From IMG/VR virus record IMGVR_UViG_3300020463_000001, positions 128,001 to 192,000 of that record: 64,000 nucleotides of DNA; one strand, written 5' to 3'. The notes under the pieces are model-generated. The model made no database searches. It saw nothing but the letters and a program-made list of their open reading frames with translations, and was not told the DNA's origin. Source of the stretch: a virus. Lineage: Duplodnaviria; Caudoviricetes. Position numbers and translations under genes: made by a program. Positions 93-63,469 of the stretch are shown here, piece after piece (within the stretch, counting starts at the first letter, position 1; the number at the start of each line of letters is the position of its first letter).

Positions 93-2147
93 ATGCCATT
101 TCAAGTAAGTCCCGGCGTTAATGTATCAGAAGTAGACCTAACTACTACCACCCCAGCAGCTGCGGTATCCGTAGGTGCTTTGGTGGGTCAATTCGCAAAA
201 GGCCCAGTAGGTGAAATAGTTACGGTTTCTAGTGAAACTGAATTGGCGCAAGTTTTTGGTAAACCAACAGACCAAAACTACAGATCTTTTTACACCGCCG
301 CGAATTTCTTGGCATACGCTGGAAACTTGCAAGTTTCTAGAGTTGTTGGAAGCGGAACTTTAAACGCGGTCGCAGGAGTCCCTACTACATCGACTCCTAC
401 TCTTGCAACAGAAACAGGAACTGCCGTCGTTGCAATAAGTGGAGAAACATTCACTGGTAACGGTGCAGATACAACATTTACTCTTTCTAGAGTTACTTAC
501 GACGAAACTCTGACAGTGACTGTGGACGGAACTGCTACTACAGATTTCACAGTAGACGGAACTACACTGACATTTGACTCTGCTCCTACTGGAACTATTC
601 TTGTAGATGTTCCTGCGAGAAGCATATTTGAAGTTTCTCAAACAGTTGGGGCAAATGACACAGTAGAAGTTGACGGATTTAGTATTGGTGTTGATTTTAC
701 TGTTAGTGGTCAATCAATTGACTTCTCAACCGCTCCGGTAAGTGATATCACAATTACAGTCAAAGGCCCAACAGTTACATCATTTGCATATACCCCAGTA
801 TTGGTTGGATCTTCTGACGATGTTTCATTTGGTTCCGGTCAAGCAGGCGGGGCCGAGTTTGTTGCAAGAACCCCTGGCCCTCACGGTAATTTTCTGAAGG
901 TTTATATGGTCGATGCAGGAACTTTCTCAAGTTTATCCTCGACTTTTCAAAATGAATTTTCTGGAGCTCCAAGTGCAGGCGAAGTTCACGTTCTTGTATG
1001 TTCTTATGAGTCTGGAACTGATAAGGTTGTCGAGAAGTTTTCATTCCTGTCAAAGGCGTCTGATGGAAAGCTCGAAGACGGAACAAATATCTACTATGTG
1101 GATTATGTCAATGAATATTCAGATTTTATTTTTGTAGTAAATCACACAACAGAAGGAACAAACTGGGGAACTCCCGCATTAGGTACAACCTTTGCAACTT
1201 TAAGTTCTATGGTTTATGTAGAATTTTCTGGTGGCACTGAAGGTTCTGTTCCAACAGCAGGCGAAGCAATATCAGGATATGGAGTTTTTGAAGACTCAGA
1301 AACTACAGATGTTGCGTTAGTAATGTCTGGAGAGTGGGGAGATATTACAGATGGTAATACGGTACAAACACATATCATCGACACAGTTGCGGCTGGTCGA
1401 AGAGATGCAGTCGCTCTGATATCTGCACGATATGTAGATTGTGCAGGATCATCTCCAGCCTCTGATGTTATTAGTTATTTCACTTCTACAATGACTAGTA
1501 ACAGCAATTATGCATTTGTAGATTCAAACTACAAGTATCAATACGACAAGTACAATGATAAGTATCGATGGATTCCGCTAAATGGAGACATCGCTGGTCT
1601 TATGGCAAGAACTGACAGCGAAAGAGATCCTTGGTTCTCTCCTGCTGGCTTCAACCGTGGGGTTATCAAGAATGTTGTTAAAACGGCTTGGACACAAACG
1701 AAGGCAAACAGAGACGATCTTTACAGAAAAGCCTTAAATCCCGTTGTTACATTCCCAGGCCAAGGTACAGTTCTTTATGGTGACAAGACGTTCACTACAA
1801 AACCAAGTGCCTTTGACAGAATAAATGTAAGAAGATTGTTTATTGTTCTAGAGAAAACTATTGCAACAGCATCTAAGTTTACATTATTCGAAATGAATGA
1901 TGAATTTACGAGATCACAATTTGTATCTCTGGTAGAACCTTTCTTGAGAGAAGTAAAGGGCCGAAGGGGAATTTTTGATTTTAAGGTGGTTTGTGACTCA
2001 ACAAATAATACTGCTCAGATAGTAGATAGTAATGAATTTGTGGGTGACATCTTTATCAAGCCTGCAAGATCTATCAACTTCATCCAGTTAAACTTTGTTG
2101 CTACAAGAACTGGAACAGATTTTGAAGAAATTGTTGGATCTGTATAA
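93..2147 (+). CDS. gp18: tail sheath protein
   Basis: N-term SPGVNVSEVDLT; C-term PWFSPAGFNRG, RINVRRLF, IKPARSINFIQLNF; first gene of the T4 18-23 block. Confidence 0.97.
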   Translation: MPFQVSPGVNVSEVDLTTTTPAAAVSVGALVGQFAKGPVGEIVTVSSETELAQVFGKPTDQNYRSFYTAANFLAYAGNLQVSRVVGSGTLNAVAGVPTTSTPTLATETGTAVVAISGETFTGNGADTTFTLSRVTYDETLTVTVDGTATTDFTVDGTTLTFDSAPTGTILVDVPARSIFEVSQTVGANDTVEVDGFSIGVDFTVSGQSIDFSTAPVSDITITVKGPTVTSFAYTPVLVGSSDDVSFGSGQAGGAEFVARTPGPHGNFLKVYMVDAGTFSSLSSTFQNEFSGAPSAGEVHVLVCSYESGTDKVVEKFSFLSKASDGKLEDGTNIYYVDYVNEYSDFIFVVNHTTEGTNWGTPALGTTFATLSSMVYVEFSGGTEGSVPTAGEAISGYGVFEDSETTDVALVMSGEWGDITDGNTVQTHIIDTVAAGRRDAVALISARYVDCAGSSPASDVISYFTSTMTSNSNYAFVDSNYKYQYDKYNDKYRWIPLNGDIAGLMARTDSERDPWFSPAGFNRGVIKNVVKTAWTQTKANRDDLYRKALNPVVTFPGQGTVLYGDKTFTTKPSAFDRINVRRLFIVLEKTIATASKFTLFEMNDEFTRSQFVSLVEPFLREVKGRRGIFDFKVVCDSTNNTAQIVDSNEFVGDIFIKPARSINFIQLNFVATRTGTDFEEIVGSV

Positions 2148-2154
2148 TAATCGT

Positions 2155-2162
2155 TATAAATA
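2155..2162 (+). promoter_or_regulatory. T4-type late promoter
   Basis: TATAAATA before gp19; AGGAG RBS follows. Confidence 0.85.
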
Positions 2163-2186
2163 TAGTTAAAATTTTAGGAGAAAACA

Positions 2187-2738
2187 ATGGCGTTTGATAT
2201 CGCATCATTCAAATCAAGATTGAGAAACGGTGGAGCAAGACCTAATCTATTTGAAGTAGAAGTAGGAAATCCAATTGACGGTTCTGCAGATGACGTATTT
2301 CGTTTTCATTGCAGAGCGGCCCAGTTACCAGCATCCACAATACCCGCAATTGATGTTCCTTATTTTGGAAGACAGGTGAGGATTGCCGGAAACAGAACAT
2401 TTGAGCCTTGGACGGTTACAATTCTTAATGATGAAGATTTCTCAGTAAGAACTGCACTTGAAAACTGGATGGGTGGAATTAATGATCATGCATCAAATTT
2501 ACAGTTTAACAGTCAAACATCTTATAAGAATAGAGATTCTAAAGTCGTTCATTATGGTAAAGACGGTTCAGTTATTGCAACATACAAGTTTGTTGGTATT
2601 TTCCCAACAGAACTTGGTGCGGTAGAGCTCGCGTGGGATTCTAATGATCAGATTGAAGAATTTACTTGCACATTTGCATATGACTATTGGTTGCATGAAG
2701 AAGCAGCCGGAGGCCTGAGGGTTACCGTAAGTCTATAA
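2187..2738 (+). CDS. gp19: tail tube protein
   Basis: GGARPNLFEV, GRQVRIAGNRTFEPWTVT, IEEFTCTFAYDYW; synteny. Confidence 0.96.
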   Translation: MAFDIASFKSRLRNGGARPNLFEVEVGNPIDGSADDVFRFHCRAAQLPASTIPAIDVPYFGRQVRIAGNRTFEPWTVTILNDEDFSVRTALENWMGGINDHASNLQFNSQTSYKNRDSKVVHYGKDGSVIATYKFVGIFPTELGAVELAWDSNDQIEEFTCTFAYDYWLHEEAAGGLRVTVSL

Positions 2739-2769
2739 TACTCCCGAATTTACACAACTATTTTTTCAT

Positions 2770-2777
2770 TATAAATA
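2770..2777 (+). promoter_or_regulatory. T4-type late promoter embedded in a 17-bp inverted repeat (2747-2789)
   Basis: TATAAATA upstream of gp20. Confidence 0.8.
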
Positions 2778-2803
2778 GTTGTGTAGATTTAAGGTGATGT
2801 TAA

Positions 2804-4372
2804 ATGGCGATTAAACTTTTTGGATTCAATATATCTAGGAGTTCGGAGGAGAATAAACAAGTTCGTTCCTTTGTTCCTAGAGAAGATCAAACCGATGACG
2901 GCGCATTAACAGTTCAGAGTGGGTTCTCCGGAACCTACTTGGAATTGGAAAACAATGCTAAGTCAGATTCAGAACTTATAAACAAATATCGTGAAATGGT
3001 GATGCATCCAGAAGTGGAGATTGCCGTTGACGATATCACATCAGAAGCGATAGTTCATGACACTATCGAATACCCTGTCAAAATTCACACAAAGAATATT
3101 AAGAGTGCTTCTCTGAGAAAAACTATTGAAGAGGAATTTAATAATATTCTAAAACTTCTCAAGTTTAAAGAAAGAGGATATGACATTTTCCGCAACTGGT
3201 ACGTTGACGGAAGACTATTCTATCATATCATCATTAACGAGTCCAAACCAAAAGATGGAATTAGAGAACTTCGAAGTATCGATCCTCGCAAAATCAAAAA
3301 AGTAAAACAAGTTAAGAAAGACAAAGTTTCTCCGCAAGATCCGGTGAATACTGCAGGGATAGTTTCTAAACAAGAAGAGTATTATGTCTACAATCAAAAG
3401 GGAATTGTAAATGCGGAAGGTGTTTCTGGACTTCCAATTACTGTCGATTCTATTTGTCATATCACATCAGGACTTAAAGATGGCCGCAGAAACTATGTTG
3501 TAAGTCATCTCCATAAAGCAATCAAACCCCTCAATCAGTTGAAATTGGTAGAAGACTCCGTTGTCATTTACAGATGGACAAGAGCACCAGAAAGAAGAGT
3601 ATTCTATATCGATGTTGGTAACTTACCAAAACAGAAAGCAGAACAATATCTTTCTGAAATAATGACCAAACACAAGAACAAGATTGTCTATGATGGAACT
3701 ACTGGTGAAGTCAGGGACGATAGAAAACATCTATCAATGTTAGAAGATTACTGGTTCCCTCGTAGAGAAGGTGGGCGAGGAACAGAGATTGAAACATTGC
3801 CCGGCGGTACAAACCTAGGCGAGATGGATGATGTCAATTACTTCCTCAAGAAATTATACAAGTCTCTTAATGTTCCTATCTCAAGATTAGAACCAGAGAA
3901 TACTATGCAGTTGGGAAGGGCTCAGGAGATATCTAGAGACGAATACAAATTCAACAGATTTATCATACGACTGCGAGATAAATTTTCAGATCTATTTACC
4001 GATCTATTGAAAAAACAATTAGTTCTCAAAGGTTATATCAGTCTTGATGAATGGAAAGAGATGAGTCAAGATATTATATTTGACTTTACTCAAGACTCAT
4101 ATTATACAGAAATTAAGAATGCAGAAATGCTGCGAGATAGGATTGCCTTGGTTGCTGAAATGCAAGACTACATTGGTAAGTACTATTCTAATGAATGGGT
4201 GAGAAAAAATATTCTTAAGATGACTACATCCGAAATTAAACAGATGGATACTCAGATTAAGAAAGAATTGGAAAGTGAAGAACCTCAAGACCAACCGCCG
4301 TCAGGAGAAGACGGTGAAGGTGGAGAAGAGGGTGGAAACGATCAACAAGATAATGAACAAAATTTCATATAG
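2804..4372 (+). CDS. gp20: portal vertex protein
   Basis: RAPERRVFYIDVGNLPKQKAEQY and MLEDYWFPRREGGRGTEIETLPGG are T4 portal motifs. Confidence 0.98.
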   Translation: MAIKLFGFNISRSSEENKQVRSFVPREDQTDDGALTVQSGFSGTYLELENNAKSDSELINKYREMVMHPEVEIAVDDITSEAIVHDTIEYPVKIHTKNIKSASLRKTIEEEFNNILKLLKFKERGYDIFRNWYVDGRLFYHIIINESKPKDGIRELRSIDPRKIKKVKQVKKDKVSPQDPVNTAGIVSKQEEYYVYNQKGIVNAEGVSGLPITVDSICHITSGLKDGRRNYVVSHLHKAIKPLNQLKLVEDSVVIYRWTRAPERRVFYIDVGNLPKQKAEQYLSEIMTKHKNKIVYDGTTGEVRDDRKHLSMLEDYWFPRREGGRGTEIETLPGGTNLGEMDDVNYFLKKLYKSLNVPISRLEPENTMQLGRAQEISRDEYKFNRFIIRLRDKFSDLFTDLLKKQLVLKGYISLDEWKEMSQDIIFDFTQDSYYTEIKNAEMLRDRIALVAEMQDYIGKYYSNEWVRKNILKMTTSEIKQMDTQIKKELESEEPQDQPPSGEDGEGGEEGGNDQQDNEQNFI

Positions 4373-4383
4373 GAGTGTAAAAA

Positions 4384-4641
4384 ATGACTGACAATGAAGA
4401 AAATATAAATAATGAAGTAGATGCGACAACAAGTATTGTCGATGACATTGTTAATGGTGAATTATCAGATGCTCAGAATACAATCAAAGGTATACTGAGT
4501 CAAAATATGGCCGGCGAAATCGAAGGTCATAAACAAGAATTTGCGGGCACTCTTTTTCAAGATGAACCAGAAGTTGAGGTAGAAGATACCGAAGAAACAT
4601 CTGCAGAAGTCGAGACAGAGGTTGCAGAAACCGAAGAATAG
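4384..4641 (+). CDS. gp67: acidic prohead core protein (gp67-like)
   Basis: Small, very acidic, immediately after the portal gene; mainly positional. Confidence 0.65.
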   Translation: MTDNEENINNEVDATTSIVDDIVNGELSDAQNTIKGILSQNMAGEIEGHKQEFAGTLFQDEPEVEVEDTEETSAEVETEVAETEE

Positions 4642-4649
4642 GAATTACT

Positions 4650-4919
4650 ATGAAGACTTTTTCTCAATTTTTAGAAGATGATTTAGACGAAGCGGTAAAA
4701 CGTAAAGTTGTTATCCGTGGCGGAAAACGCAAGATTAAGTTTAAGTCTGACAGGGCCGGATACAAAGTTGACGGCAATAAAAGAGAAGTCAAAATTTCTG
4801 CATCAGATAAAGTCAAAATGAGTTTGAGAAATAAAAAGTCTGCTCGAAAGAGAAAGGGCAAAGTTGCTATTTCTAATACTCGCAGAGCAAGGTCAATGGC
4901 CAAACGTACAGGAACATAG
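4650..4919 (+). CDS. gp68: basic prohead core protein (gp68-like)
   Basis: Lys/Arg-rich, MKTFSQFLE..LDE N-terminus, precedes gp21. Confidence 0.75.
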   Translation: MKTFSQFLEDDLDEAVKRKVVIRGGKRKIKFKSDRAGYKVDGNKREVKISASDKVKMSLRNKKSARKRKGKVAISNTRRARSMAKRTGT

Positions 4920-4921
4920 AC

Positions 4922-5569
4922 ATGAAACTAATCACAGAAATTTGCGAAGATCTAATTGTTGAAGAAAAAGGAAAAGACCTTTATATCGAAGGTGTTTTTC
5001 TCCAGTCAAATGTAGAAAACAGAAATGGCAGAGTGTATCCAAAAGAAGTTCTTGAGAAAGAAGTCAAAAGATATACAGAAAATTACATCAATAAAAACAG
5101 GGCATTCGGTGAATTAGGTCATCCGGATGGGCCCTCTATTAACCTAGAAAGAGTTTCCCACATGATTAAATCTCTCAAACTTGAGGGCGATAATTATGTC
5201 GGTAAAGCAAAGATTATGAAAGAAACTCCTTATGGTGCAATAGTATCAAATCTTATCAAAGAAGGTGCGTCTCTTGGTGTTTCTTCTAGAGGTATGGGAA
5301 GTGTGAAGTCTACGAAAGAAGGAAACAATGTAGTGCAAGGTGATTTTTATCTTGCGACTGCGGCCGATATCGTGGCGGATCCATCTGCTCCTGATGCATT
5401 CGTAAATGGAATCATGGAAGGAAAGGAATGGATTTGGGATAATGGTATTATCCGCGAAGCACAAATTGACAGTTATCGAAATGCAGTTAGGTCTGCAAAG
5501 TCTAAAGAGATGGAAACTACTAAGATAGGACTCTTTGAAGATTTCTTCGAAAAATTGTCTAAAAACTAA
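4922..5569 (+). CDS. gp21: prohead core protease
   Basis: NRNGRVYP, GELGHPDGP, GVSSRGMGS, DIVADPSAPDA. Confidence 0.97.
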   Translation: MKLITEICEDLIVEEKGKDLYIEGVFLQSNVENRNGRVYPKEVLEKEVKRYTENYINKNRAFGELGHPDGPSINLERVSHMIKSLKLEGDNYVGKAKIMKETPYGAIVSNLIKEGASLGVSSRGMGSVKSTKEGNNVVQGDFYLATAADIVADPSAPDAFVNGIMEGKEWIWDNGIIREAQIDSYRNAVRSAKSKEMETTKIGLFEDFFEKLSKN

Positions 5570-5574
5570 ATTAT

Positions 5575-5582
5575 TATAAATA
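5575..5582 (+). promoter_or_regulatory. T4-type late promoter
   Basis: TATAAATA before gp22. Confidence 0.85.
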
Positions 5583-5617
5583 TTTGGTAAAATCAACTCA
5601 ATTAGGAGAATAATACG

Positions 5618-6682
5618 ATGGCTAATGAACTAGAAGTCAATGAAGTTGAAGAACTAGAGAATTCAGTAGAGTCTGAAGAAATTTCTGAAGAGTCTCAAGA
5701 CGAACTAGTTCAAGAAGTTTCTGAAGAACAAGCTGACGAAGCGGTAGAAGAAATTCTTGCCGAGTTAGACGAAGAAGAAACTTCTGAAGAAAGTGAAGAA
5801 GAAGAGTCTTTGGCAGAAGGCGGTTACGGCAAGAAAAAAATGAAAGAAGCCGACGATGAAGAAGACGAAGAAGAACCTAAGAATTCTTTTATGATGAAGA
5901 AGAAGGTCAAGAAAGAAGATATTGATGTATCAGAGCACATTGATGCAATGTTGTCTGGTCATGAATTATCAGAAGATTTCCAAGAAAAGGCTCGCACAAT
6001 TTTCGAAGCTGCAGTTCTAGAACAAGTAAACAAAGAAGTTGAAAAGATAGATCAACAGTATGAAGAAGATTTTGAGAAGTCAGTTCTTGAAGTCAGATCA
6101 CAAATTGCAGAAAAGGTAGATGAGTATCTATCTTATGTTGCTAAAGAGTGGTTGGAAGAGAATAAGGTTGTTGTTGAAAGCAGCCTTAAACTTGAAATCA
6201 TGGAAAATTTCATTTCTGGTATGAAGACAGTTTTCGAAGAAAATTATATCGAAGTCCCAGAAGAGAAAGCAGATTTGTATGCAGAAGCAGTTGCTGAAGC
6301 AGAACAAGTCAAAGAACAACTCAATGAAGCAATCGAAAAGAATGTTAAACTTTCTAAAGAAGTTGAAACTGTTCAGAAAGATGGAATCATTAGGGATGTC
6401 GTGGAAGGTATGACTATACAACAGGCTGATAAGATTCGTTCTTTGTCTGAAGGTGTAGAATTTACTTCTGCTGAAGATTTTGCTGAAAAGGTTAAAGTCA
6501 TTAAGGAAAATTATTTTCCAAGTGAAGAAACTGTTTCTAGTGAAGTTGTAGATGGCGAAGAAGAAGTTACTGCGGTTGAAGATTCTGAGGTTGTTCTTGA
6601 AGAACAGGCTTCTAAGAAAACTTCTGATCCTGTAATGGAGAACTACGCAAGAGCAATCTCAAGGTTCAGTAGAAAACAGTAA
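5618..6682 (+). CDS. gp22: prohead core scaffolding protein
   Basis: Acidic coiled coil, KVDEYLSYVAKEW, KVIKENYF; lies between gp21 and gp23. Confidence 0.93.
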   Translation: MANELEVNEVEELENSVESEEISEESQDELVQEVSEEQADEAVEEILAELDEEETSEESEEEESLAEGGYGKKKMKEADDEEDEEEPKNSFMMKKKVKKEDIDVSEHIDAMLSGHELSEDFQEKARTIFEAAVLEQVNKEVEKIDQQYEEDFEKSVLEVRSQIAEKVDEYLSYVAKEWLEENKVVVESSLKLEIMENFISGMKTVFEENYIEVPEEKADLYAEAVAEAEQVKEQLNEAIEKNVKLSKEVETVQKDGIIRDVVEGMTIQQADKIRSLSEGVEFTSAEDFAEKVKVIKENYFPSEETVSSEVVDGEEEVTAVEDSEVVLEEQASKKTSDPVMENYARAISRFSRKQ

Positions 6683-6694
6683 AAATCAAAATAT

Positions 6695-6702
6695 TATAAA
6701 TA
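6695..6702 (+). promoter_or_regulatory. T4-type late promoter
   Basis: TATAAATA before gp23. Confidence 0.85.
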
Positions 6703-6764
6703 ATAACTGAAAATTAAGAAAAACTTGACAAAAACTTAATTGAATTAATCCAAAGGAGACTACG

Positions 6765-8126
6765 ATGTATACAGAAATGCATTTGTCAGAGCAACTTCAA
6801 GAGAAGTGGAAGCCGGTAATCGAGCATCCCGATCTACCTAAGATCGAAGATTCTTACAAGAGAGCGGTAACTGCTATGCTTCTTGAAAACCAAGAAAAAG
6901 TTGCAAGAGAAGAAGCATCAATGTTGACTGAAGGGCCGATAAATGCAGTTGGTGGCGGTATGTCTCCAGTTGTCGGTGGTGAAGGCAACATTAAAGGTAT
7001 GGATCCAGTACTGATCTCATTGATCAGACGTTCTATGCCCAACCTGATGGCGTATGATGTTCTAGGTGTTCAACCTATGAGCGGCCCAACAGGTCTTATC
7101 TTCGCGATGAAATCACAATACGGCGATCAGGCCGGCGAAGCACTTTACGGCGAAGCAGATACTGCTTTCTCTGGTGCCTCAAGTCCTGTTCACAACGGAA
7201 CTGATCCATTCAGTGGTGTCGCAGTAACTGGTTCTGGCGCTTCTGCCGAACTTGATTACTCTGGTAGCGATTACACATCTGGAGGGCCCGCCGCTACTGC
7301 TAAGGCAGAAGCATTGGGAGACGGTACTGTAACTGGAATGGGTACAGGCGGTCACTTCAATCAGATGTCATTCTCAATCGATAGAGTATCTGTGACAGCG
7401 CAATCAAGAGCACTGAAAGCAGAATACACTATGGAATTGGCACAAGATCTGAAGGCAGTTCACGGTCTAGACGCTGAAAGCGAATTATCAAACATTCTTT
7501 CTTCAGAAATCACTGCTGAAATCAACAGAGAAGTTCTGAGAACAGTATACGCAGTTGCAAAGCCTGGCGCACAAGCTGGTGTAACTACGAAGGGTGTTTT
7601 TGATCTAGATGCTGACGCAGATGGTCGTTGGTCAGTAGAGAAGTACAAAGGTCTTCTTTACCAGATCGAAAGAGAAGCAAACGCAATCGCTAAAGAAACT
7701 CGTAGAGGAAAAGGTAACTTGGTTATCTGTTCTTCAGACGTTGCTTCGGCTCTCGCCATGTCAGGTGTACTAGATTACAACCCTGCGCTACAAACTAATC
7801 TTTCAGTTGATGACACAGGTCAAACTTTTGCCGGTGTTCTTAACGGAAGAATGAGAGTTTATATTGATCCTTACTTTACATCAACCTCTGGTTATGAGTT
7901 GTTGGTTGTAGGTTATAAGGGATCTTCACCTTATGATGCTGGTATTTTCTACTGCCCATACGTCCCATTACAAATGGTTCGCGCAGTGGGTGAAAATACT
8001 TTCCAACCTAAGATTGGATTCAAGACCCGATACGGAATTGTTGCAAACCCATTTGCATCAATGAGTTCTGGTTCAAACCAATACTACAGAAAGGTTGCCA
8101 TCTCAGGATTGACAGCAATCGGTTAA
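6765..8126 (+). CDS. gp23: major capsid protein
   Basis: GVQPMSGPTGLIFAM, SRALKAEYTMELAQDLKAVHGLDAE, YCPYVPLQM, FQPKIGFKTRYG. Confidence 0.99.
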   Translation: MYTEMHLSEQLQEKWKPVIEHPDLPKIEDSYKRAVTAMLLENQEKVAREEASMLTEGPINAVGGGMSPVVGGEGNIKGMDPVLISLIRRSMPNLMAYDVLGVQPMSGPTGLIFAMKSQYGDQAGEALYGEADTAFSGASSPVHNGTDPFSGVAVTGSGASAELDYSGSDYTSGGPAATAKAEALGDGTVTGMGTGGHFNQMSFSIDRVSVTAQSRALKAEYTMELAQDLKAVHGLDAESELSNILSSEITAEINREVLRTVYAVAKPGAQAGVTTKGVFDLDADADGRWSVEKYKGLLYQIEREANAIAKETRRGKGNLVICSSDVASALAMSGVLDYNPALQTNLSVDDTGQTFAGVLNGRMRVYIDPYFTSTSGYELLVVGYKGSSPYDAGIFYCPYVPLQMVRAVGENTFQPKIGFKTRYGIVANPFASMSSGSNQYYRKVAISGLTAIG

Positions 8127-8178: not shown

Positions 8179-8187
8179 GTGGTTGAT

Positions 8188-22094: not shown

Positions 22095-22282
22095 TGGATG
22101 GCGTGGATCTAGAAATCAAAAGGAAGGATTCTACTCTGTTGATAAAAGTCAACAAAGAAGAGAAGAAAAAGTTTATTGCTCTGTGTGAGTTGAATGATTC
22201 CAGTGCATCCAGAGAGATTCGCAGATTTATGAAAGAATATATTAATAATTTTTCGGTGGAAATAAAACTTGACAACGGCTAG
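22094..22282 (+). CDS. ribbon-helix-helix (CopG/Arc-like) DNA-binding protein
   Basis: LLIKVNKEEKKKFIALCELNDSSASREIRRFMKEYI fits strand-helix-helix; TAATG-coupled to gp46. Confidence 0.6.
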   Translation: MDGVDLEIKRKDSTLLIKVNKEEKKKFIALCELNDSSASREIRRFMKEYINNFSVEIKLDNG

Positions 22283-22297
22283 AAAATTTGAGACAAT
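22269..22297 (+). promoter_or_regulatory. possible sigma70-type promoter for the modification cassette
   Basis: TTGACA-N17-GACAAT (imperfect -10). Confidence 0.4.
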
Positions 22298-23492
22298 GGT
22301 TCCCATGTATCAACCTTATACTCTAAAGGATGTGTTTGCAGCATCCGCACAGAATAAATTTAACGTCATATCTACATTCGCTGGCGGTGGTGGATCTAGT
22401 ACTGGTTATCGTCTTGCTGGCGGTAATGTATTGTGTGTAAATGAATTTGTCGAAGAGGCACAAAATACCTACGCAGAAAACTATCCAAACACTCCTATAC
22501 TACCTAACGATATTAAGGAGTTGAGTGGATCAGACTTTTTAGATATTGTCGGATTGGGTGTGGGCGAGTTAGATATTCTTGATGGTTCGCCACCGTGTTC
22601 TGCATTTTCAGTTGCAGGAAAACTATCTCACAATGTTAAAAAGGAAGAGATGGTTGATTTGTTTGGAGAGACAACTATAGTCAATGTGTCTGGAAAACAT
22701 TCAGATGGTTGGGGTCAGACTAAGAATTATTCTGACGGAAAGATGGTAGAGAATATCGAAGATCTTTTCTTTGAGTTCCTTAGAGTTGCAAATGATATCA
22801 AACCCAAAGTGATTGTTGCGGAGAATGTTAAAGGATTGACCATAGGCGAGGCGAAACAATACTATAATAAAATTCTCAACGAGTTCGAAAAGATAGGGTA
22901 TGATGTTTCATCTCAAGTCATGGACGCAAGATATTATGGTGTTTCTCAGACAAGAACTAGGGTAATCTTTATCGGCATTAGACACGATATTACTGAGAAG
23001 GCTGGTTTTAACTTTATGACTGTTGGAAATATTTTTCCGCAACCGTCCAGAAAAATAATTCCCTTGATGGATGCCCTAGTAGATTTAGAATACGATCAAG
23101 AAGAAGTTGATTATCTCACAGAGAAGTTTACTAAAACTGCGTATTGGTTACAGACCGGAAGTAAGATGGAAGACGATCCAAAGAAAGTTTTGACTGGAAT
23201 GGATTATCATCCGAAAGGACATCACTTTAACCTCAAAAGAGTGTCCAGATACGCACCAGCACCCACGCTAACGGCGATGGGGAGTAATGACACTACAGCA
23301 GGTGCATTCCACTGGGCCGAACCTAGAAAACTCACTCTGGGGGAATTAAAGAGGATTCAGAGTTTACCTGATGACTTCAAGTTGACCGGAAAATGGAACC
23401 AGAAATCAGAAAGAATCGGTAGAATGGTTCCGCCAAAAATGATGCAGTCAATTGCTGCGTCTATCTATGAAAATGTATTGGAGAAAATATGA
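22296..23492 (+). CDS. C5-cytosine DNA methyltransferase-family protein, probable carboxymethyltransferase (CmoX-like)
   Basis: Motif I FAGGGG, IV GSPPC, VI ENVKG, VIII QTRTR, IX RKLT..E..RIQ; motif X reads GRMVPP instead of GN(A/S)VP; start is ATG 22296 or 22305. Confidence 0.85.
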   Translation: MVPMYQPYTLKDVFAASAQNKFNVISTFAGGGGSSTGYRLAGGNVLCVNEFVEEAQNTYAENYPNTPILPNDIKELSGSDFLDIVGLGVGELDILDGSPPCSAFSVAGKLSHNVKKEEMVDLFGETTIVNVSGKHSDGWGQTKNYSDGKMVENIEDLFFEFLRVANDIKPKVIVAENVKGLTIGEAKQYYNKILNEFEKIGYDVSSQVMDARYYGVSQTRTRVIFIGIRHDITEKAGFNFMTVGNIFPQPSRKIIPLMDALVDLEYDQEEVDYLTEKFTKTAYWLQTGSKMEDDPKKVLTGMDYHPKGHHFNLKRVSRYAPAPTLTAMGSNDTTAGAFHWAEPRKLTLGELKRIQSLPDDFKLTGKWNQKSERIGRMVPPKMMQSIAASIYENVLEKI

Positions 23493-24037
23493 GCAACGTA
23501 AGCCAATTGATCGCTAAACATAATGGTGATGATCCTTTTAACGATGAAGCCCAAAGAAACGCGCTTAAAAGTTTCCTTCGCACAGACCTTGATTTTGTCA
23601 GATTTATTTTAGACTATGCAGAAATAAAAAGTGACGCTAAGCCATGTGATATTATAGATGACCCTTTAGGAGAAAAAAGAGTAGACTTGGGAATAATAGA
23701 TAAAAATTCTAATGTTCGATGTTTAGTTGAAGTTGATTACTATTTCAAATGGGATCCATTTTGGCCAAAAAACTATAAAAATGCTCACGCATTAGAGAGA
23801 AAAATAAAATATTGGAGGGGCAAAAATATCCCATATATTGGTTGTACTTTTAGTAAAAATCTCGATAAGATGATAGTAATTACAGATGAACTTATAACAG
23901 AGTATATGCACACCAAACGAAAAAAGTGGGTAGAACTTCATGGCGAGTTGGTAGAAGATGTTTTCATTAGTATACCCCCCTTCAGAGCGTTTAAGTTTGG
24001 AGATTGGCAAGACGACGAATTACGGAGAGTTTCATAA
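23489..24037 (+). CDS. putative PD-(D/E)xK-fold nuclease-like protein
   Basis: DDPLG..RVDLGI...LVEVD pattern; ATGA/TAATG-coupled to both neighbours. Confidence 0.45.
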   Translation: MSNVSQLIAKHNGDDPFNDEAQRNALKSFLRTDLDFVRFILDYAEIKSDAKPCDIIDDPLGEKRVDLGIIDKNSNVRCLVEVDYYFKWDPFWPKNYKNAHALERKIKYWRGKNIPYIGCTFSKNLDKMIVITDELITEYMHTKRKKWVELHGELVEDVFISIPPFRAFKFGDWQDDELRRVS

Positions 24038-24723
24038 TGGCAGACTTTACTTTTGCACACAGAAAAGAGGGCTTCGATGCTCACATAGATGCATCTATTC
24101 GTCACTACTCATCACTTCATGATGATATAGTTGCAATGTCTAGATACTTTGTAGAGAATGATACCAGTGTAGTTGATATTGGTTGCTCTACTGGAAAAAC
24201 TCTAGGGGCAATGATTGACCAGAATAAGGAATCGGCTCCTAATGCACAGTATCATGGAGTTGAAAACGCAGATGGATTTGCGGAAGATATGAAATCCAGA
24301 GAAGAAGAATATGTTGATTCTAATCTCAGTTTACATTTTCAAGATGTAAGAAACTTTGTATTTCCTGTTGATTCTTCATTCATAACGAGCATATTTACTT
24401 TACAGTTTATTCCAAAACGAGATCGACAATCTATTCTGGATTCGATATATGATTCTCTTCTTCCCGGCGGAGCATTCGTTTTTTCTGAGAAGACTTATGC
24501 CTCATCTCCAGAACTAGAACAGATACTCACATTCCTCTTTTATGACCATAAAAGAAAAGAGTTTTCCTGTGAAGATATTATGGACAAAGAATATACTTTG
24601 AGATCAATGCTGAAACCAATGCACTGGGACGATTTACTATCCATGATGTACGAGGCAGGATTCCAAGAAGTTCAACCTTTTTGGAGAAATCATCTATTCG
24701 TAGGAGCAATCGCTATAAAATAG
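24037..24723 (+). CDS. cmoA: CmoA-like carboxy-S-adenosylmethionine synthase (class I SAM-binding fold)
   Basis: FD.HI..SI..Y, VVDIGCSTG, FTLQFI, LLPGGAFVFSEK, HKR, EAGF..V..FW parallel E. coli CmoA; start ATG 24037. Confidence 0.78.
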   Translation: MADFTFAHRKEGFDAHIDASIRHYSSLHDDIVAMSRYFVENDTSVVDIGCSTGKTLGAMIDQNKESAPNAQYHGVENADGFAEDMKSREEEYVDSNLSLHFQDVRNFVFPVDSSFITSIFTLQFIPKRDRQSILDSIYDSLLPGGAFVFSEKTYASSPELEQILTFLFYDHKRKEFSCEDIMDKEYTLRSMLKPMHWDDLLSMMYEAGFQEVQPFWRNHLFVGAIAIK

Positions 24724-40352: not shown

Positions 40353-40820
40353 ATGTACAAGTATAGAGTTGATGTGATAAAAGTTATTGATGGTGACACA
40401 GTAGATGTTGATATCGATTTAGGATTTGGTGTTTGGTTAAAGAAAGAACGAGTTAGATTATATGGAATTGACACTCCAGAGTCCAGAACCAGAGATTTAG
40501 AAGAAAAGAAATTTGGATTACTCGCAAAAGACTTCTTACAGGAAGCCTTAATGGGAGATAAATATGATGAGGTATTACTACAAACTCACAAAGACGAAAA
40601 GGGTAAGTTTGGTAGAATACTTGGTGAGTTTATTGTAGTAGATAACGCTGGTCATCCTACGTTTGAAGTAGAATTAAATTTAAACGATATGATGATAGAA
40701 CGCAAGATGGCGGTTGCCTATTACGGTCAGAGCAAAGATGATATTGAAGAAGGTCATCTAAAGAATAGAGAATACCTCTATGAGAATGGAACGGTAGAAT
40801 TTGAAATTGCGGAAAGTTAA
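40353..40820 (+). CDS. staphylococcal nuclease-like (thermonuclease) protein
   Basis: VIDGDTVDV, RVRLYGIDTPE, GKFGRILG. Confidence 0.9.
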   Translation: MYKYRVDVIKVIDGDTVDVDIDLGFGVWLKKERVRLYGIDTPESRTRDLEEKKFGLLAKDFLQEALMGDKYDEVLLQTHKDEKGKFGRILGEFIVVDNAGHPTFEVELNLNDMMIERKMAVAYYGQSKDDIEEGHLKNREYLYENGTVEFEIAES

Positions 40821-56279: not shown

Positions 56280-56290
56280 GGTGAGTACGG

Positions 56291-58048: not shown

Positions 58049-58057
58049 GAGAAAAAT

Positions 58058-59296
58058 ATGGATGTATCTATCTATTCAAAATCGGGTTGTCCCTTTTGCG
58101 TAAAGGCAAAAGATTGGTTTGAAGATTTTGATATTAAATATACAGAGGTTGTTCTTGATGATGAAGAACAGCGTCTATCATTTTATCAAAGAATAAATGG
58201 TTCAAAAGAAGTTCTAGGGACAGGTTCGTTCCCTAGAAGAGTTAACTCTATGCCTCAGATATTTGTCGATGACAAACATATCGGTGGGTATGATGATTTG
58301 ATGGTTAGTGCAGATAAGATACTGAAGAAAGTATCTGGTGGATTGACAAAAGTATCTCAGACATATAAACCATTCTTTTATCCTTGGGCAGTAGAACTGA
58401 CTACGAAACATGAAAAAGTTCACTGGATCGAAGATGAAGTTGACCTATCCGAAGATGTGATGGATTGGAAGACTGGTAGGGTGTCAGAAACAGAAAAGGA
58501 ATACATAACAAACATCCTTAGATTGTTTACTCAATCAGATGTGGAAGTTGGTAAGAACTATTACGATCAATTCATTCCCAGAATTAAGAATAATGAAGTT
58601 CGTAATATGTTGGGGTCATTCGCTGCGAGAGAAGGTATCCATCAAAGGGCCTACGCACTGTTAAACGAGACTCTTGGATTGCCTGATAGTGAGTATCACG
58701 CATTCTTGGAGTATCAGGAAATGACCGACAAGGTAGAGTTCATGACAGACTCCGATCCTTCTACTGTAAGAGGTTTGGGGCTCGCCTTCGCAAAATCTGT
58801 ATTCAACGAAGGTGTCGCACTGTTTGCCTCATTCGTAATGTTGCTCAACTTCCAGAGATATGGAAAGATGAAAGGAATGGGTAAGGTCGTAGAGTGGTCT
58901 ATCAGAGACGAATCTATGCACGTTGAGGGAAACGCAAATCTATTCAGATCATACTGTTCAGAACATCCAAGAATTGTAGATGATTCCTTTAAGAAAGAAA
59001 TTTATGAAATGTCCAAGACTGCAGTTAAGTTAGAAGATAAGTTTATTGACTTGGCTTACAGTCTAGGAGATATTGATGGACTGTCTTCAAATGAGGTGAA
59101 AGTTTATATTAGATATATAACTGATAGAAGATTACTTCAATTGGGACTAAAACCTGTGTTTAAGGTAAAAACGAATCCTCTTCCTTGGTTGGAATGGATT
59201 CTAAATGGCGCAGATCACACCAACTTCTTCGAAAATAGGGTTACGGAATACGAAGTTGCAGGGCTGGTTGGAAGTTGGGATGATGCCTACGCATAA
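58058..59296 (+). CDS. nrdB: glutaredoxin-NrdB fusion (RNR beta subunit)
   Basis: N-term YSKSGCPFC...MPQIFVDDKHIGGYD (Grx); FTQSD, EGIH, DESMH, TNFFE (R2). Confidence 0.94.
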   Translation: MDVSIYSKSGCPFCVKAKDWFEDFDIKYTEVVLDDEEQRLSFYQRINGSKEVLGTGSFPRRVNSMPQIFVDDKHIGGYDDLMVSADKILKKVSGGLTKVSQTYKPFFYPWAVELTTKHEKVHWIEDEVDLSEDVMDWKTGRVSETEKEYITNILRLFTQSDVEVGKNYYDQFIPRIKNNEVRNMLGSFAAREGIHQRAYALLNETLGLPDSEYHAFLEYQEMTDKVEFMTDSDPSTVRGLGLAFAKSVFNEGVALFASFVMLLNFQRYGKMKGMGKVVEWSIRDESMHVEGNANLFRSYCSEHPRIVDDSFKKEIYEMSKTAVKLEDKFIDLAYSLGDIDGLSSNEVKVYIRYITDRRLLQLGLKPVFKVKTNPLPWLEWILNGADHTNFFENRVTEYEVAGLVGSWDDAYA

Positions 59297-59308
59297 ATAG
59301 GAATGTAG

Positions 59309-59521
59309 ATGTCAAGAGATAACGCATTAGAGATTCTAGAGTGTCGTTATTGTTCTTGTTACTTTGAAATATTTTTAAGAAATATAGATGATAGTGTGAA
59401 TTATTGCCCGAATTGTGGAGAACAAATTTCGGGCAGTTACTCTTTAGAAGATGATGAAGATGAAGATGAAGATGAGGGTAGAGATTTATATAATGAAACT
59501 AATAGGTTATGGTCAGATTAG
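59309..59521 (+). CDS. zinc-ribbon protein with acidic tail
   Basis: CRYC...CPNCG. Confidence 0.6.
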   Translation: MSRDNALEILECRYCSCYFEIFLRNIDDSVNYCPNCGEQISGSYSLEDDEDEDEDEGRDLYNETNRLWSD

Positions 59522-60078
59522 GCGGAATTGATTACAGTTTAACATCACCATCTGTATGTGTATACACAGGAGAACCAGAAGATTTTTCATTTGAGTCTTG
59601 TGGTGTGTACTTCCTGTCACCTACTAAAAAATATTCAGAGTATTCTTTCAAGAACATAGACGGTCAATCGACAATATTTACTTATGAGTATCCCGAAGAG
59701 AGATATGATTTTATATCCGATTGGGCGATAGATATTGTATTGACAAACGAGATAGAATCTGTTTATATAGAAGATTATAGTTATAACTCTACAGGAAAGG
59801 TATTTCATATCGCAGAAAACTGTGGCCTTCTGAAGTGGAAACTATGGAATTCGGAGATAGATTATCATCTAGTATCACCAGCGGAGATTAAAAAGTTCGC
59901 TTCTGGTAAAGGAAATGCGAATAAAGAACTGATGTATGAGAGTTTTATTTCTTCTACAGATGTTGATCTGAAGCAGTATCTAGAATCTAAATCTACAAAA
60001 ATAGGAAATCCAATATCGGATATCATAGATTCCTATTATATTTGCAAATATGGTATAAATTTACTTGACAAAGACTAG
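59509..60078 (+). CDS. RuvC-like Holliday junction resolvase/nuclease
   Basis: GIDYSLT, YIEDY, KKFASGKGNANKE, DIIDS. Confidence 0.8.
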   Translation: MVRLGGIDYSLTSPSVCVYTGEPEDFSFESCGVYFLSPTKKYSEYSFKNIDGQSTIFTYEYPEERYDFISDWAIDIVLTNEIESVYIEDYSYNSTGKVFHIAENCGLLKWKLWNSEIDYHLVSPAEIKKFASGKGNANKELMYESFISSTDVDLKQYLESKSTKIGNPISDIIDSYYICKYGINLLDKD

Positions 60079-60093
60079 ATTATTCTATAGAAT
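60065..60093 (+). promoter_or_regulatory. sigma70-type promoter
   Basis: TTGACA-N17-TAGAAT. Confidence 0.85.
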
Positions 60094-60120
60094 GGTCTTA
60101 TCTTTTAATTGAGTAAATTT

Positions 60121-60420
60121 ATGCAGATAATTTACGGCAGCATGAGACACGATCCATCAGGTAGAAAACGGAAAACGTCTCGCAAATCTACTAAAAAATA
60201 CCAACAAGAATTTCGTCCGCTCAAGACTAAACCTAATGTCCTTAGACAAGAAACTGTTTATCCTTCTAGAGAGTTGACAAGTTCGACTACTTGTGGTATG
60301 ATAGAAAAACAAAAATATACAGGCGATTCTATTGTAGGTATCGCCACTATGCATAAGTCTAACGCAGTCCCAGTTACAAGTGCAAAATACGCAGAAGAAA
60401 TATCAAGGATGGGGAAATGA
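60121..60420 (+). CDS. conserved basic hypothetical protein
   Basis: YTG..IVGIATMHKSNAVPV. Confidence 0.6.
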   Translation: MQIIYGSMRHDPSGRKRKTSRKSTKKYQQEFRPLKTKPNVLRQETVYPSRELTSSTTCGMIEKQKYTGDSIVGIATMHKSNAVPVTSAKYAEEISRMGK

Positions 60421-60971
60421 ATGTATTTGTATTAAGTCGCGATCCGGTTGAGGCAGCACAACAACAGTGTGATAAACACATTCCGAAGATGGTTGTTGAA
60501 TCAGCTCAGATGCTCTCAACAGTCCATCGTATACTGGATGGAGTTGAAATGTTGAAACCATCTGTATCCGGAAAAACACAAGTAAAGTATTATATGTTGC
60601 CGGACAATAGAGAACTAACTCTATACAAGGCTGTTCATCATAAACATCCATGCACTGTATGGACTGGTGAATCTTTCATCAATTACAGGTGGCACTGGAA
60701 ACATTTTTCTGCGCTCTGTGACGAATATACGCACCGCTACGGTAAGGTTCACGCAACTGATACGAAACTACGAGAAGAACTGGAAAGGATGCCAGACAAC
60801 ATCCCACGCACCAGAATGACCGATTTTAAACTGGCAATGCAGTCAAATCCAGAGTGTATGTTCCCAGAAGATCCTGTTAAGTCATATCAAAAATTTTACA
60901 TGACAAAACAGAAAAGATTCAATATGAAATGGACTAACAGAAAAGTACCGGAGTGGTTTAAGTATGAGTGA
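60417..60971 (+). CDS. pyrimidine-dimer DNA glycosylase family (DenV-like)
   Basis: MNVFVL..DP..AAQ..CDKH..KM..ESAQML; H.HPCT.W; EYT.RYGK.H. Confidence 0.8.
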   Translation: MNVFVLSRDPVEAAQQQCDKHIPKMVVESAQMLSTVHRILDGVEMLKPSVSGKTQVKYYMLPDNRELTLYKAVHHKHPCTVWTGESFINYRWHWKHFSALCDEYTHRYGKVHATDTKLREELERMPDNIPRTRMTDFKLAMQSNPECMFPEDPVKSYQKFYMTKQKRFNMKWTNRKVPEWFKYE

Positions 60972-61251
60972 ATTTATTGGAAAGATTGGTGAAAGGGCTC
61001 TTTGGTTCGCAAAGATCATCGAAAAGAAAGATGTCAATACTCACTATGGAGCAAGCACAGTCTATAGCGTTGTGACCCAGACCGGAAGGTACGGATCATT
61101 CTTTGCTGATAACAATGATCAATTAGATGTTGATATTTGTTTTCATTTCAAAGGAACTGTCAAGTCTCATGATTTTAATCAATACACAAACAGAAATGAG
61201 ACAAAGTTCAATAGGGTATCGATTGGAGATGTCATAGGAAAAGCTTCTTGA
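60964..61251 (+). CDS. hypothetical protein (OB-fold-like)
   Basis: FIGKIGER...KGTVKSH..N.Y....ET.FNRV. Confidence 0.5.
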   Translation: MSEFIGKIGERALWFAKIIEKKDVNTHYGASTVYSVVTQTGRYGSFFADNNDQLDVDICFHFKGTVKSHDFNQYTNRNETKFNRVSIGDVIGKAS

Positions 61252-61276
61252 CAAACTCCGAATATCTCGGTATACT
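61248..61276 (+). promoter_or_regulatory. sigma70-type promoter
   Basis: TTGACA-N17-TATACT. Confidence 0.85.
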
Positions 61277-61304
61277 GTTCTACAATATAAAAATGGATTT
61301 CTAA

Positions 61305-62183
61305 ATGATTTTGGTTGATTTGAATCAAGTTGTAATATCTAACTTGATGACGCAGATAAACTCCTACCAAGAAACTGTCGATGAAAATTTAATTCGACAC
61401 ATGATTCTCAACAGCATTCTAAGTGTTAAAAAGAGGTTCTCTGGAGACTATGGAAATATTATCCTCTGTTGTGATAATAAAAATTTTTGGCGTAAGGAGA
61501 TTTATCCGTATTATAAAGCTTCTCGTAGGAAAATGCGTGAAGATTCTGATTATGATTGGAATCTTATCTTTAATACTATTACTGATGTAAAGAGAGATCT
61601 ACGAGAAGTTTTTCCTTACAAGATACTTGAAGTCGAACACGCAGAGGCAGATGATATAATCGGTGTTCTCACAAGACACTTTTCTTCAAGAGAAAAGATA
61701 CTGATCATCTCTAGTGACAAAGACTTCAAGCAACTTCAACGATACGAAGGAGTTGCACAATACAGTCCTATTTTGAAGAAATTTATCTCAACTTCCGATC
61801 CTTATAAATATATCAGAGAACATATTATTAGGGGCGATAGAGGTGATGGTATTCCCAATTTTTTGTCTCCAGATGATGTATTTGTGTCAGGTAAGAGACA
61901 GAAGGCCCTATCCAAAAATAAGATGGTAGATTGGTTGGACATAGACAGAGATCCAGAGGATTTCTGTGATTCGAATATGTTGAAGAATTACAAAAGAAAT
62001 CAGCAACTGGTCGATCTAACATTCGTTCCCGAAGAAATAGAGAATCAAATTCTCCAAGAGTATCAGAAACTTCCGACTGGTGACATGAAGAAAGTTTTTG
62101 ATTATTTTATTAAAAACAAGATGATTCTTCTTATGGATGAATTATCTGAGTTTAAAGAGGCAAATTATGAAGTTAGTATCTGA
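61305..62183 (+). CDS. rnh: T4 RNase H / 5'-3' exonuclease
   Basis: LVDLNQ, WRKE.YPYYK..R, EADDII, SSDKDFKQL, GDRGDGIPN. Confidence 0.96.
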   Translation: MILVDLNQVVISNLMTQINSYQETVDENLIRHMILNSILSVKKRFSGDYGNIILCCDNKNFWRKEIYPYYKASRRKMREDSDYDWNLIFNTITDVKRDLREVFPYKILEVEHAEADDIIGVLTRHFSSREKILIISSDKDFKQLQRYEGVAQYSPILKKFISTSDPYKYIREHIIRGDRGDGIPNFLSPDDVFVSGKRQKALSKNKMVDWLDIDRDPEDFCDSNMLKNYKRNQQLVDLTFVPEEIENQILQEYQKLPTGDMKKVFDYFIKNKMILLMDELSEFKEANYEVSI

Positions 62184-62589
62184 AATCTTTGAGGAAATAG
62201 AGTCCACACGATCTATTAATCAAAAGAAAGATATTCTATCCGGCCATAAAAGGACTGGATTCTTGAGTGTTTTACAACATATGTTCGATAGGAACATCAA
62301 GTTCGCTATCAAAAAAATTCCAGAATATCGCCCATCCAAGGCACCTCTAGGACTGGAAGACAGTTATCTAGAGAAAGCAATGAAAGATCTTAGACTGTTC
62401 TACACGGACAGCAACGTATCCGAAGAAAGAATGAAAATCATTCTTATTCAGATTCTTGAGAGTCTTAATCCCAAAGAGGCAGAAATCCTCTGTAAGATTA
62501 TCACTCGCAAGATAAAGGTTTCCGGTCTGACTGAGAGATTAGTTAGAGAAGTTCATCCAGACCTTCTACCGGAAGCAGTAGGGGAGTAA
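62167..62589 (+). CDS. conserved T4-like helical protein
   Basis: LVSEIFE...PEYRPS.APLG...QILESL.PKEAE; start ATG 62167. Confidence 0.6.
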   Translation: MKLVSEIFEEIESTRSINQKKDILSGHKRTGFLSVLQHMFDRNIKFAIKKIPEYRPSKAPLGLEDSYLEKAMKDLRLFYTDSNVSEERMKIILIQILESLNPKEAEILCKIITRKIKVSGLTERLVREVHPDLLPEAVGE

Positions 62590-62596
62590 TAGTCTG

Positions 62597-62758
62597 ATGA
62601 ATATGATGAGTAAATTCGTGAAAGGTTCATTTTTAGTTCTTGTTTTCGTTTTTATTATGTCATGTTTCAATCAAACTAATGCTTTAATCGATGACTTTGT
62701 TCATGTAAAATATAATGGGATAATTGATGAAAAACAAGAAAGATTTTCACAAAAATAA
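62597..62758 (+). CDS. small putative lipoprotein (53 aa, not in ORF track)
   Basis: MNMMSKFVKGSFLVLVFVFIMS-C; GGGGAG upstream. Confidence 0.45.
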   Translation: MNMMSKFVKGSFLVLVFVFIMSCFNQTNALIDDFVHVKYNGIIDEKQERFSQK

Positions 62759-62978
62759 TCGTCACCACAAAATAGAAAGTTATAAAAACTTTTCTAAAAA
62801 TCTAGTGGTCAAATTGCGGCCTATAATCAACTTTAGAAAGACTTGGGGATATGAAGTCAAACTTATTGACTTTGCTTCTGAGTGGTCTAGAGAAAATGGG
62901 CCAGAAGTAACCGCAAAGTTCTTTCTCAGAGAAAACGAAGCAAGAACTTATGCAAAAGAATTAGCAGGAGCTTCATAA
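62724..62978 (+). CDS. hypothetical protein (start uncertain)
   Basis: TAATG-coupled to the next gene. Confidence 0.45.
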   Translation: MMKNKKDFHKNNRHHKIESYKNFSKNLVVKLRPIINFRKTWGYEVKLIDFASEWSRENGPEVTAKFFLRENEARTYAKELAGAS

Positions 62979-63169
62979 TGCAAGATTTTGAAGAATATAT
63001 GCGTCCAGAAGATACGGAAAAGTGGAATAATGATCCATACTATGCCGGTTGGTTCTGGTCAAATGAAGAAAATGACTTCTTCCGATGGCCAACATTCGTT
63101 GCTAAGAGTCGTATGTATGACCTCAAAGCAACAGTAACATCAACAACTTATGATAGGAGTTTAGTTTAA
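62978..63169 (+). CDS. hypothetical protein
   Basis: AGGAG RBS; Trp-rich. Confidence 0.55.
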   Translation: MQDFEEYMRPEDTEKWNNDPYYAGWFWSNEENDFFRWPTFVAKSRMYDLKATVTSTTYDRSLV

Positions 63170-63172
63170 ATT

Positions 63173-63469
63173 ATGGCAAAAGGAAAGGGCGGATCTAAGA
63201 CCGCAAATATCTCATCTGGCCCAAAGGTATCTGCGGGCCCATCTAGGAGTCGTTGGGCAGGCGATCCTAATCGTCCAATGCAACGTGCGATGAACCAACT
63301 CAACGCATGGAAGAAAGGTAAGAATGTTGTTCTTACAGTTCCCAATCCGGACAAAAACGTAACCAATGCTCGGTACATCAAAGTGAATGCCAGAGAGTAT
63401 TGGGGTAGTCCTTTCAAGAAGCAACAACCTTCTAAGAAGGCTGTAGAGACCGAAAAGGGAGACGAATAA
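63173..63469 (+). CDS. conserved basic hypothetical protein
   Basis: LNAWKKGKNVVLTVPNPD. Confidence 0.55.
   Translation: MAKGKGGSKTANISSGPKVSAGPSRSRWAGDPNRPMQRAMNQLNAWKKGKNVVLTVPNPDKNVTNARYIKVNAREYWGSPFKKQQPSKKAVETEKGDE

Follow-up and report, generated by a model that had tools for sequence, protein, structure and literature searches.

Near-complete and maintained avoidance of GGWCC in the genome of a marine T4-like phage, probably imposed by host restriction

The pentamer GGWCC (W being A or T, hence GGACC or GGTCC) is almost completely purged from the genome of an uncultured marine T4-like myophage. The stretch analyzed here, called the window, comprises 64,000 nucleotides, bases 128001-192000 of the complete 200,733-bp virus record IMGVR_UViG_3300020463_000001, which has direct terminal repeats and 38% GC. 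The window contains zero copies of GGACC and zero of GGTCC, where base or dinucleotide composition predicts about 48 sites and a Markov model of order 3 predicts 24. The whole genome has a single site, GGACC at position 103238, against 163-172 expected at order 0 or 1 and 80 at order 3. The order-3 Poisson probability for GGWCC in the genome, 1.4e-33, is the lowest among all 512 pentamer pairs. The agent of this purge is probably a restriction enzyme of AvaII type in the host, one that cuts GGWCC (or GGNCC); we infer both the enzyme and the host. The feature at issue is the following.

1-64000, no strand: domain of GGWCC avoidance, taking in the entire window and reaching across the full 200.7-kb genome

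The original prediction, drawn from a reading of the window by eye, had proposed window-wide avoidance of GGWCC, and the full counts confirm an effect stronger than the one claimed. In a codon shuffle, synonymous codons were permuted within each gene for 200 rounds, using 224 non-overlapping open reading frames (ORFs) that make the genome 96% coding. It gave an expectation of 125.6 +/- 7.7 GGWCC sites for the whole genome, with a minimum of 107 in any of the 200 shuffles, while the genome has one (z = -16.2). That z is the most extreme found in a scan of all 4-, 5- and 6-bp palindromes, and GGWCC falls far below expectation under every Markov order from 0 to 3 as well as under the shuffle. GGSCC (S being G or C) is by the same measure enriched 2.5-fold genome-wide, 160 copies against 64. 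Six motifs had been described as common in the window. The description holds for GGCC, CCGG, GATC, GANTC and GGATCC; it does not hold for CCWGG, which has 21 copies in the window and is depleted about two-fold in the genome (66 against 138).

Codon choices show the route by which sites are removed. Genome-wide, GGA and GGT make up 77% of the codons for Gly. The window contains 20 Gly-Pro pairs, in which Gly is written GGC in 10 and GGG in 10, in agreement with the 19 pairs checked originally, and the 92 pairs of the whole genome use GGG 48 times, GGC 43 times and GGA once, this last being the surviving site. The other two reading frames are handled with equal strictness. Where the preceding codon ends in GG, ACC is never used for Thr (0 of 101 genome-wide) and TCC never for Ser (0 of 86); between a codon ending in G and one beginning with C, Asp is GAT in 57 of 57 cases and Val is GTC in none of 87. 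GGWCC is purged, then, in all three reading frames by synonymous choices. The enrichment of GGSCC follows as a recoding product of GGWCC removal and, because the changes at Gly third positions run from W to S, C-to-T decay cannot account for the removal.

The purge is maintained as lineages diverge. Two independent relatives, each from other metagenomes, lack GGWCC altogether: G787 (127 kb, 86.7% identity across 110 kb), with 0 sites against 105 expected at order 1 and 49 at order 3, and G788 (60 kb, 90.2% identity), with 0 against 46 and 24. The phage and G787 differ by 13,265 substitutions across 107,351 aligned positions, a divergence of about 13%. When equal numbers of substitutions were placed at random in 300 trials, keeping from-base, to-base and codon phase for each class, 48 +/- 6 new GGWCC sites arose, never fewer than 33, where G787 has 0 and the phage 1. 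With 48 sites predicted and 0-1 observed, GGWCC is actively kept out; the purge is the work of selection that is still continuing, not of mutation bias. Selection against an AvaII-like site, as originally proposed, is thus supported both by synonymous recoding in every frame and by exclusion of the site through 13% divergence. The sole genomic GGWCC, outside the window, sits in a fibre-like ORF of 1998 amino acids (101390-107386). Around position 103238 the ORF did not align with the 87%-identical relative G787, and no homology was found there; the stretch is possibly a segment that was exchanged recently, with the purge still pending.

Avoidance is distributed patchily among marine T4-like phages. 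The major capsid protein (gp23), encoded at window positions 6765-8126, shows 58-60% identity to its counterparts in cyanomyoviruses, in the SAR11 phage Mosig and in the OM43 phage Melnitz. A cyanophage identity for the phage was considered and is rejected, since psbA was not found in the complete genome and cyanophages that carry the DNA methyltransferase CmoX, described below, keep GGWCC; S-B43, RN05-S and S-CRM01 show no avoidance of it. Mosig also keeps the site (77 copies against 70 expected), while Melnitz has none in 133.7 kb, against 58-96 expected, and GGWCC is its most depleted pentamer. Across about 100 palindromes, the depletion profile of the phage correlates with that of Melnitz at rho 0.63 and with that of a Melnitz-like contig at 0.67, compared with 0.28 for Mosig and 0.33-0.40 for the cyanophages. 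The correlation with Melnitz is the higher one despite the similar gp23 identity of the phage to all of these.

Larger samples give the same picture. In a capsid sample of 80 marine T4-like contigs, the avoiding gp23 clades contain 3 GGWCC sites against 74 expected at order 1 (observed/expected 0.04), and the remaining contigs contain 334 against 339 (0.98). In the gp23 tree the avoiders occupy four or more separate positions, forcing at least four gains or losses, and one avoiding clade is Melnitz-like, with 83-92% identity to Melnitz. A second set, 76 marine contigs totaling 566 kb that encode a CmoX homolog 74-81% identical to that of the phage, has 62 sites against 411 at order 1 (0.15), and a few non-avoiding sublineages are nested among avoiders in the cmoX tree. 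No extra N4 methyltransferase was found in the non-avoiding cmoX contigs, and no cmoX in the avoiding gp23 fragments, the records in both cases being short fragments. Avoidance goes with host or lineage and not with composition or the phylogeny of the phages, a pattern typical of host-specific pressure.

Host restriction, the better reading of the two agents originally proposed, would account for this pattern as follows. SinI, which recognizes GGWCC, has given its name to a Pfam family, RE_SinI (PF09570). In the host population, a Type IIP endonuclease with the specificity of AvaII/SinI (G^GWCC) would attack any GGWCC copy in the phage, and the outcome would be no different with an enzyme for which GGWCC is the part of its sites that cannot be protected. 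Modification by the phage, with CmoX and its partner CmoA acting at GpC, would not reach GGWCC, so that survival would be left to lineages in which every site had been recoded: Gly-Pro as GGS-CCN, Thr and Ser after ..GG without ACC or TCC, and Asp and Val before C.. as GAT and GTD. GGWCC is a known Type IIP target, being the site cut by AvaII (PMC12944874). Moreover, modified GGWCC, GGHCC, CCWGG and RGCY are found in varying combinations in the genomes of marine myovirus-like viruses (PMC8919816). Modified motifs of the GGWCC type in such genomes are an alternative defence to the same pressure, and provide independent support for it. The cultured host of Melnitz is OM43 strain H5P1, and both partners have a type II methylase of their own (PMC9004378); the text on restriction or palindromes in that paper does not mention a GGWCC purge.

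A number of results weigh against a host AvaII-type enzyme. A CYP153-type P450 encoded by the phage has its best matches, 73-76% identical, in metagenome-assembled genomes (MAGs) of OM182, K189A and Pseudomonadales. These OM182/K189A-type Gammaproteobacteria have 47-56% GC, far from the 38% of the phage, and the P450 points to them as hosts where the depletion profile points to a Melnitz-like ecology. With that GC content, and with GGWCC only mildly low in them, the MAGs are no more than tentative host candidates on the strength of the P450. The search for a cognate enzyme in hosts, which among GGWCC enzymes covered the SinI family only, found RE_SinI in none of the five genomes whose P450 is the closest homolog, in only 5 of the 301 genomes sampled from the order to which those five belong, and in none of the 83 from a putative Methylophilaceae family. 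The streamlined genomes sampled from this family had no C5 methyltransferase and almost no N4 or N6 methyltransferase. The family label is itself putative, resting on two strong hexulose-phosphate synthase matches in the 1.5-Mb genome at the center of the group, G313, and on how large the genomes of the group are. That genome has nine N6_N4 methyltransferase matches, and its eleven sister genomes (1.1-1.7 Mb) have none. In candidate host genomes GGWCC is only mildly depleted, at 0.5-0.75 of expectation. Finally, the many unannotated ORFs of the phage may include a GGWCC nuclease.

Four genes in the window bear on the alternatives to host restriction.

22269-23492, plus strand: CmoX-like DNA cytosine-C5 carboxymethyltransferase, originally called simply a methyltransferase (PF00145, 4.7e-57; PDB 8YF3, E = 3.9e-144)
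23489-24037, plus strand: ORF182, probable PD-(D/E)xK nuclease (AlphaFold2 model with predicted local distance difference test score, pLDDT, of 73; weak Foldseek matches, nearly all PD-(D/E)xK nucleases)
24004-24723, plus strand: CmoA-like carboxy-S-adenosylmethionine (carboxy-SAM) synthase, putative cofactor supplier for CmoX (TIGR00740; SAM-methyltransferase fold according to Pfam)
40353-40820, plus strand: nuclease of staphylococcal type, non-specific (PF00565 SNase, 1.4e-10)

Structure 8YF3 is the CmoX of phage S-B43, which uses carboxy-SAM from the phage's own CmoA and modifies GpC (PMC12783734). The window protein is 62% identical to it, with an SPPC motif (S107-P-P-C110), and its Arg385, in the segment ERIGRMVPP, aligns with the cofactor Arg that binds the carboxymethyl group and replaces the Asn of motif X. 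The CmoA-like protein has TIGR00740 as its best NCBIfam match (6.2e-27, model positions 13-239 of 239), at 94.8 bits and so below the curated cut-off of 193, and is 52-53% identical to the CmoA encoded next to cmoX in S-B43, S-CRM01 and RN05-S. From the characterized homolog, the predicted target of the window CmoX is GpC, and 5-carboxymethylcytosine is probably present at GpC in the phage DNA. An AvaII-type GGWCC methylase was considered for this gene and is rejected by homology; the original prediction had raised the matter of whether enzyme and purge share a motif, and the motif predicted for CmoX is a different one. As there is no GpC within GGWCC, CmoX and CmoA would be unable to mask it. 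CmoX is the sole C5 enzyme of the phage, the other methyltransferase is Dam-like (PF02086), and no member of family PF01555 is encoded in its genome; a GGWCC-specific methyltransferase is not among the predicted enzymes. RGCY is the most frequent "m4C" (N4-methylcytosine) motif in marine viral MAGs (PMC8919816); that this signal is CmoX carboxymethylation of GpC misread by the kinetics of SMRT (single-molecule real-time) sequencing is speculation on our part.

The purge neither requires CmoX nor follows from its presence. Melnitz shows the first, being free of GGWCC with no CmoA and with Leu at the Arg position of its C5 methyltransferase; S-B43 and its kin show the second, as they have CmoX and still keep GGWCC. 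A division of labor can nonetheless be envisaged, in which the host has a GGNCC enzyme of Sau96I/AsuI type, CmoX masks GGGCC and GGCCC, and the GpC-free remainder, GGWCC, is purged. GpC is indeed absent from GGWCC and present in both GGSCC words, GGSCC is enriched while GGWCC is missing, GGWCC is missing from the great majority of the marine cmoX clade, and GGHCC modification is reported in marine myovirus-like genomes (PMC8919816). We nevertheless regard this scheme as unlikely. A purge confined to palindromes free of GpC does not hold as a general rule, for GC-containing and GC-free palindromes are not differently depleted overall (Mann-Whitney p 0.5-1), and the GpC-containing words TGCGCA, GTGCAC and AGCT are still avoided. 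S-B43, with an active CmoX, still avoids GGCC and GGSCC; Melnitz, without the CmoX and CmoA pair, has no GGWCC yet normal GGSCC; and Gly-Pro recoding alone would yield an excess of GGSCC. S-B43 and RN05-S are also nearly without CCGG (1 against 31 expected in the former, 0 against 37 in the latter) and have few copies of GGCC and GGSCC, their GpC modification notwithstanding.

In a broader form of the same idea, to which we give little credence, purge and hypermodification would be two halves of one anti-restriction strategy against hosts with a single GGNCC-type enzyme or several enzymes: CmoX would shield GpC-containing sites, GGSCC among them, and selection would erase only the sites beyond its reach. 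The purged words would in that case read out the blind spots of 5-carboxymethylcytosine, and the shared lack of GGWCC would link the phage, and with it the marine cmoX clade, to hosts having in common with OM43 a restriction enzyme from outside the SinI family.

The second agent originally proposed was the nuclease-like gene at 23489, ORF182. Self-protection from a GGWCC nuclease encoded by the phage, directed against host or rival DNA, would need no methylase, as immunity would come from the absence of sites. ORF182 does resemble a PD-(D/E)xK nuclease, probably its fold to judge from Foldseek matches that are weak but consistent. It has no match in Pfam, NCBIfam, PHROGs or PADLOC, and only four homologs in 5.8 billion proteins. 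It is, however, an exact 549-bp cassette that follows the stop codon of cmoX and precedes the start codon of cmoA, its insertion boundaries relative to locus L084 coinciding with the ORF. In L084, and likewise in L085 and L140, the cassette is missing and cmoX abuts cmoA, and these closest relatives have 0 GGWCC sites where 12-17 are expected in their loci, as well as 0 in 127 kb and 60 kb. The 96-97% identical relatives thus lack ORF182 and are still GGWCC-free, and no homolog was found in Melnitz. ORF182 is therefore rejected as driver of the purge. Its insertion resembles the free-standing mobile nuclease genes of T4-like phages.

No better candidate for a phage-encoded agent emerged. RE_SinI is absent from the phage genome even at E <= 1. 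In a Pfam scan of the ORFs common to Melnitz but not Mosig, no restriction-enzyme family appeared, and the only nuclease was the SNase at 40353-40820, which shares 57% identity with a "nuclease-like protein" of Melnitz and had no tblastn match in Mosig. It may be an enzyme that degrades host DNA non-specifically; considered as a candidate self-nuclease, it was set aside. Seven ORFs common to the phage and Melnitz have no family assignment, and these leave some room for the idea. With at least four separate gp23 lineages avoiding the site, though, repeated transfer of one gene would be required, and no phage endonuclease gene correlating with the purge was found (ORF182 and RE_SinI having been examined). 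Self-protection from a phage nuclease is, in our estimate, improbable.

Some other GGWCC-sensing host defence, distinct from classical Type II restriction, might be imagined, inasmuch as no enzyme of the AvaII/SinI family was found in candidate hosts and streamlined marine hosts carry few recognizable restriction-modification genes. A short, strict palindrome with W at its center is, on the other hand, the signature of dimeric Type IIP enzymes, and many further Type IIP palindromes are purged alongside GGWCC; we therefore think such a defence very unlikely. An artefact of composition or mutation, whether from codon usage, dinucleotide bias or deamination of a methylated motif, is effectively refuted: the genome is AT-rich and the tetramers GGAC/GTCC and GACC/GGTC are somewhat low, but the purge withstands all the Markov orders and the codon shuffle, removal by A/T-to-G/C changes at Gly third positions runs opposite to the compositional bias, the random-substitution test gives 48 new sites for 0-1 observed, and relatives of the same composition (Mosig, other gp23 contigs) hold GGWCC at the expected level.

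GGWCC is the most extreme of a set of depleted words. The 6-bp palindromes AACGTT, ACATGT, ACCGGT, GGTACC, GACGTC, GTCGAC, TGCGCA, GTGCAC, CGATCG and CACGTG are absent genome-wide, against 9-40 copies expected for each from the codon shuffle, and TACGTA occurs once. AGCT, ACGT and GTAC stand at 0.38-0.62 of expectation in the genome. Of the 162 copies of ACGT, just one lies in a palindromic NACGTN hexamer, the TACGTA already mentioned. CGWCG, the word of Hpy99I, is depleted in the phage (45 copies against 97-120 expected), and Melnitz has almost lost it (1 against 41-45). A word that is not palindromic, CCTGAA/TTCAGG, is also depleted in the phage genome (10 against 60-114), which hints at the target of a Type IIS, Type III or bacteriophage exclusion (BREX)-like system; Melnitz has 7 copies against 63 from dinucleotide composition and 11 from a fourth-order model, and so is low against the former only. 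Mosig (MT647606; 136 kb) shows a purge complementary to that of the phage, with no GGGCC or GGCCC against 14-37 expected, though it has 115 copies of GGCC and normal GGWCC; its ACGT count is 0 against 177-236 expected. Mosig-like contigs in the capsid sample also tend to be without GGSCC.

The purge is an unusually clean and quantified case of restriction-site purging in abundant uncultured ocean phages: near-complete, actively maintained and recurrent. It carries a prediction that the hosts possess GGWCC-cutting activity. Streamlined marine methylotrophs may be among them, and for these Melnitz and H5P1 offer a cultured pair. The word-depletion profile, meanwhile, is a cheap signal for linking uncultured phages to hosts. 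Two attractive links are corrected as well, in that the neighboring nuclease is not the cause of the purge and the "methylase" is not of AvaII type.

The closest parallel among cultured phages is Melnitz (EXVC044M; MZ577097; PMC9004378), likewise a marine T4-like myophage, with 37.6% GC and no GGWCC. It shares the secondary depletions of CGWCG, CCTGAA/TTCAGG, AACGTT, GGTACC, GACGTC, GTGCAC and TGCGCA. It differs in a gp23 that is 58.6% identical, in a genome of 141 kb, in not avoiding ACATGT, and in having no CmoA together with a C5 methyltransferase that has Leu in place of Arg in motif X. The S-B43 CmoX/CmoA(/CmoY) system (PMC12783734, PDB 8YF3) offers a parallel for modification, with cmoX and cmoA close together there as here. 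The order in the phage is cmoX then cmoA, the nuclease-like cassette lies between them, and there is no adjacent asparagine-synthetase-like cmoY. S-B43 avoids CCGG and GGCC, not GGWCC, and in the phage the modification is predicted from its genes.

Avoidance of palindromes is well known in lytic double-stranded DNA phages, as in T7, in Bacillus phages with respect to GGCC, and in Anabaena and Nostoc cyanophages that lack AvaI and AvaII sites. The phage resembles these classic cases in that a Type IIP palindrome is nearly gone, the recoding is synonymous, the pattern is specific to lineage or host, and other palindromes are depleted alongside it more weakly. It differs in that the purge is essentially total, 1 site of 126, in a 200-kb genome; that it occurs in a large uncultured marine group also equipped for GpC carboxymethylation, and in at least four T4-like lineages; and that here we infer the agent. 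The purge belongs to an already known class, restriction-site avoidance, of which it is a well-documented new example.

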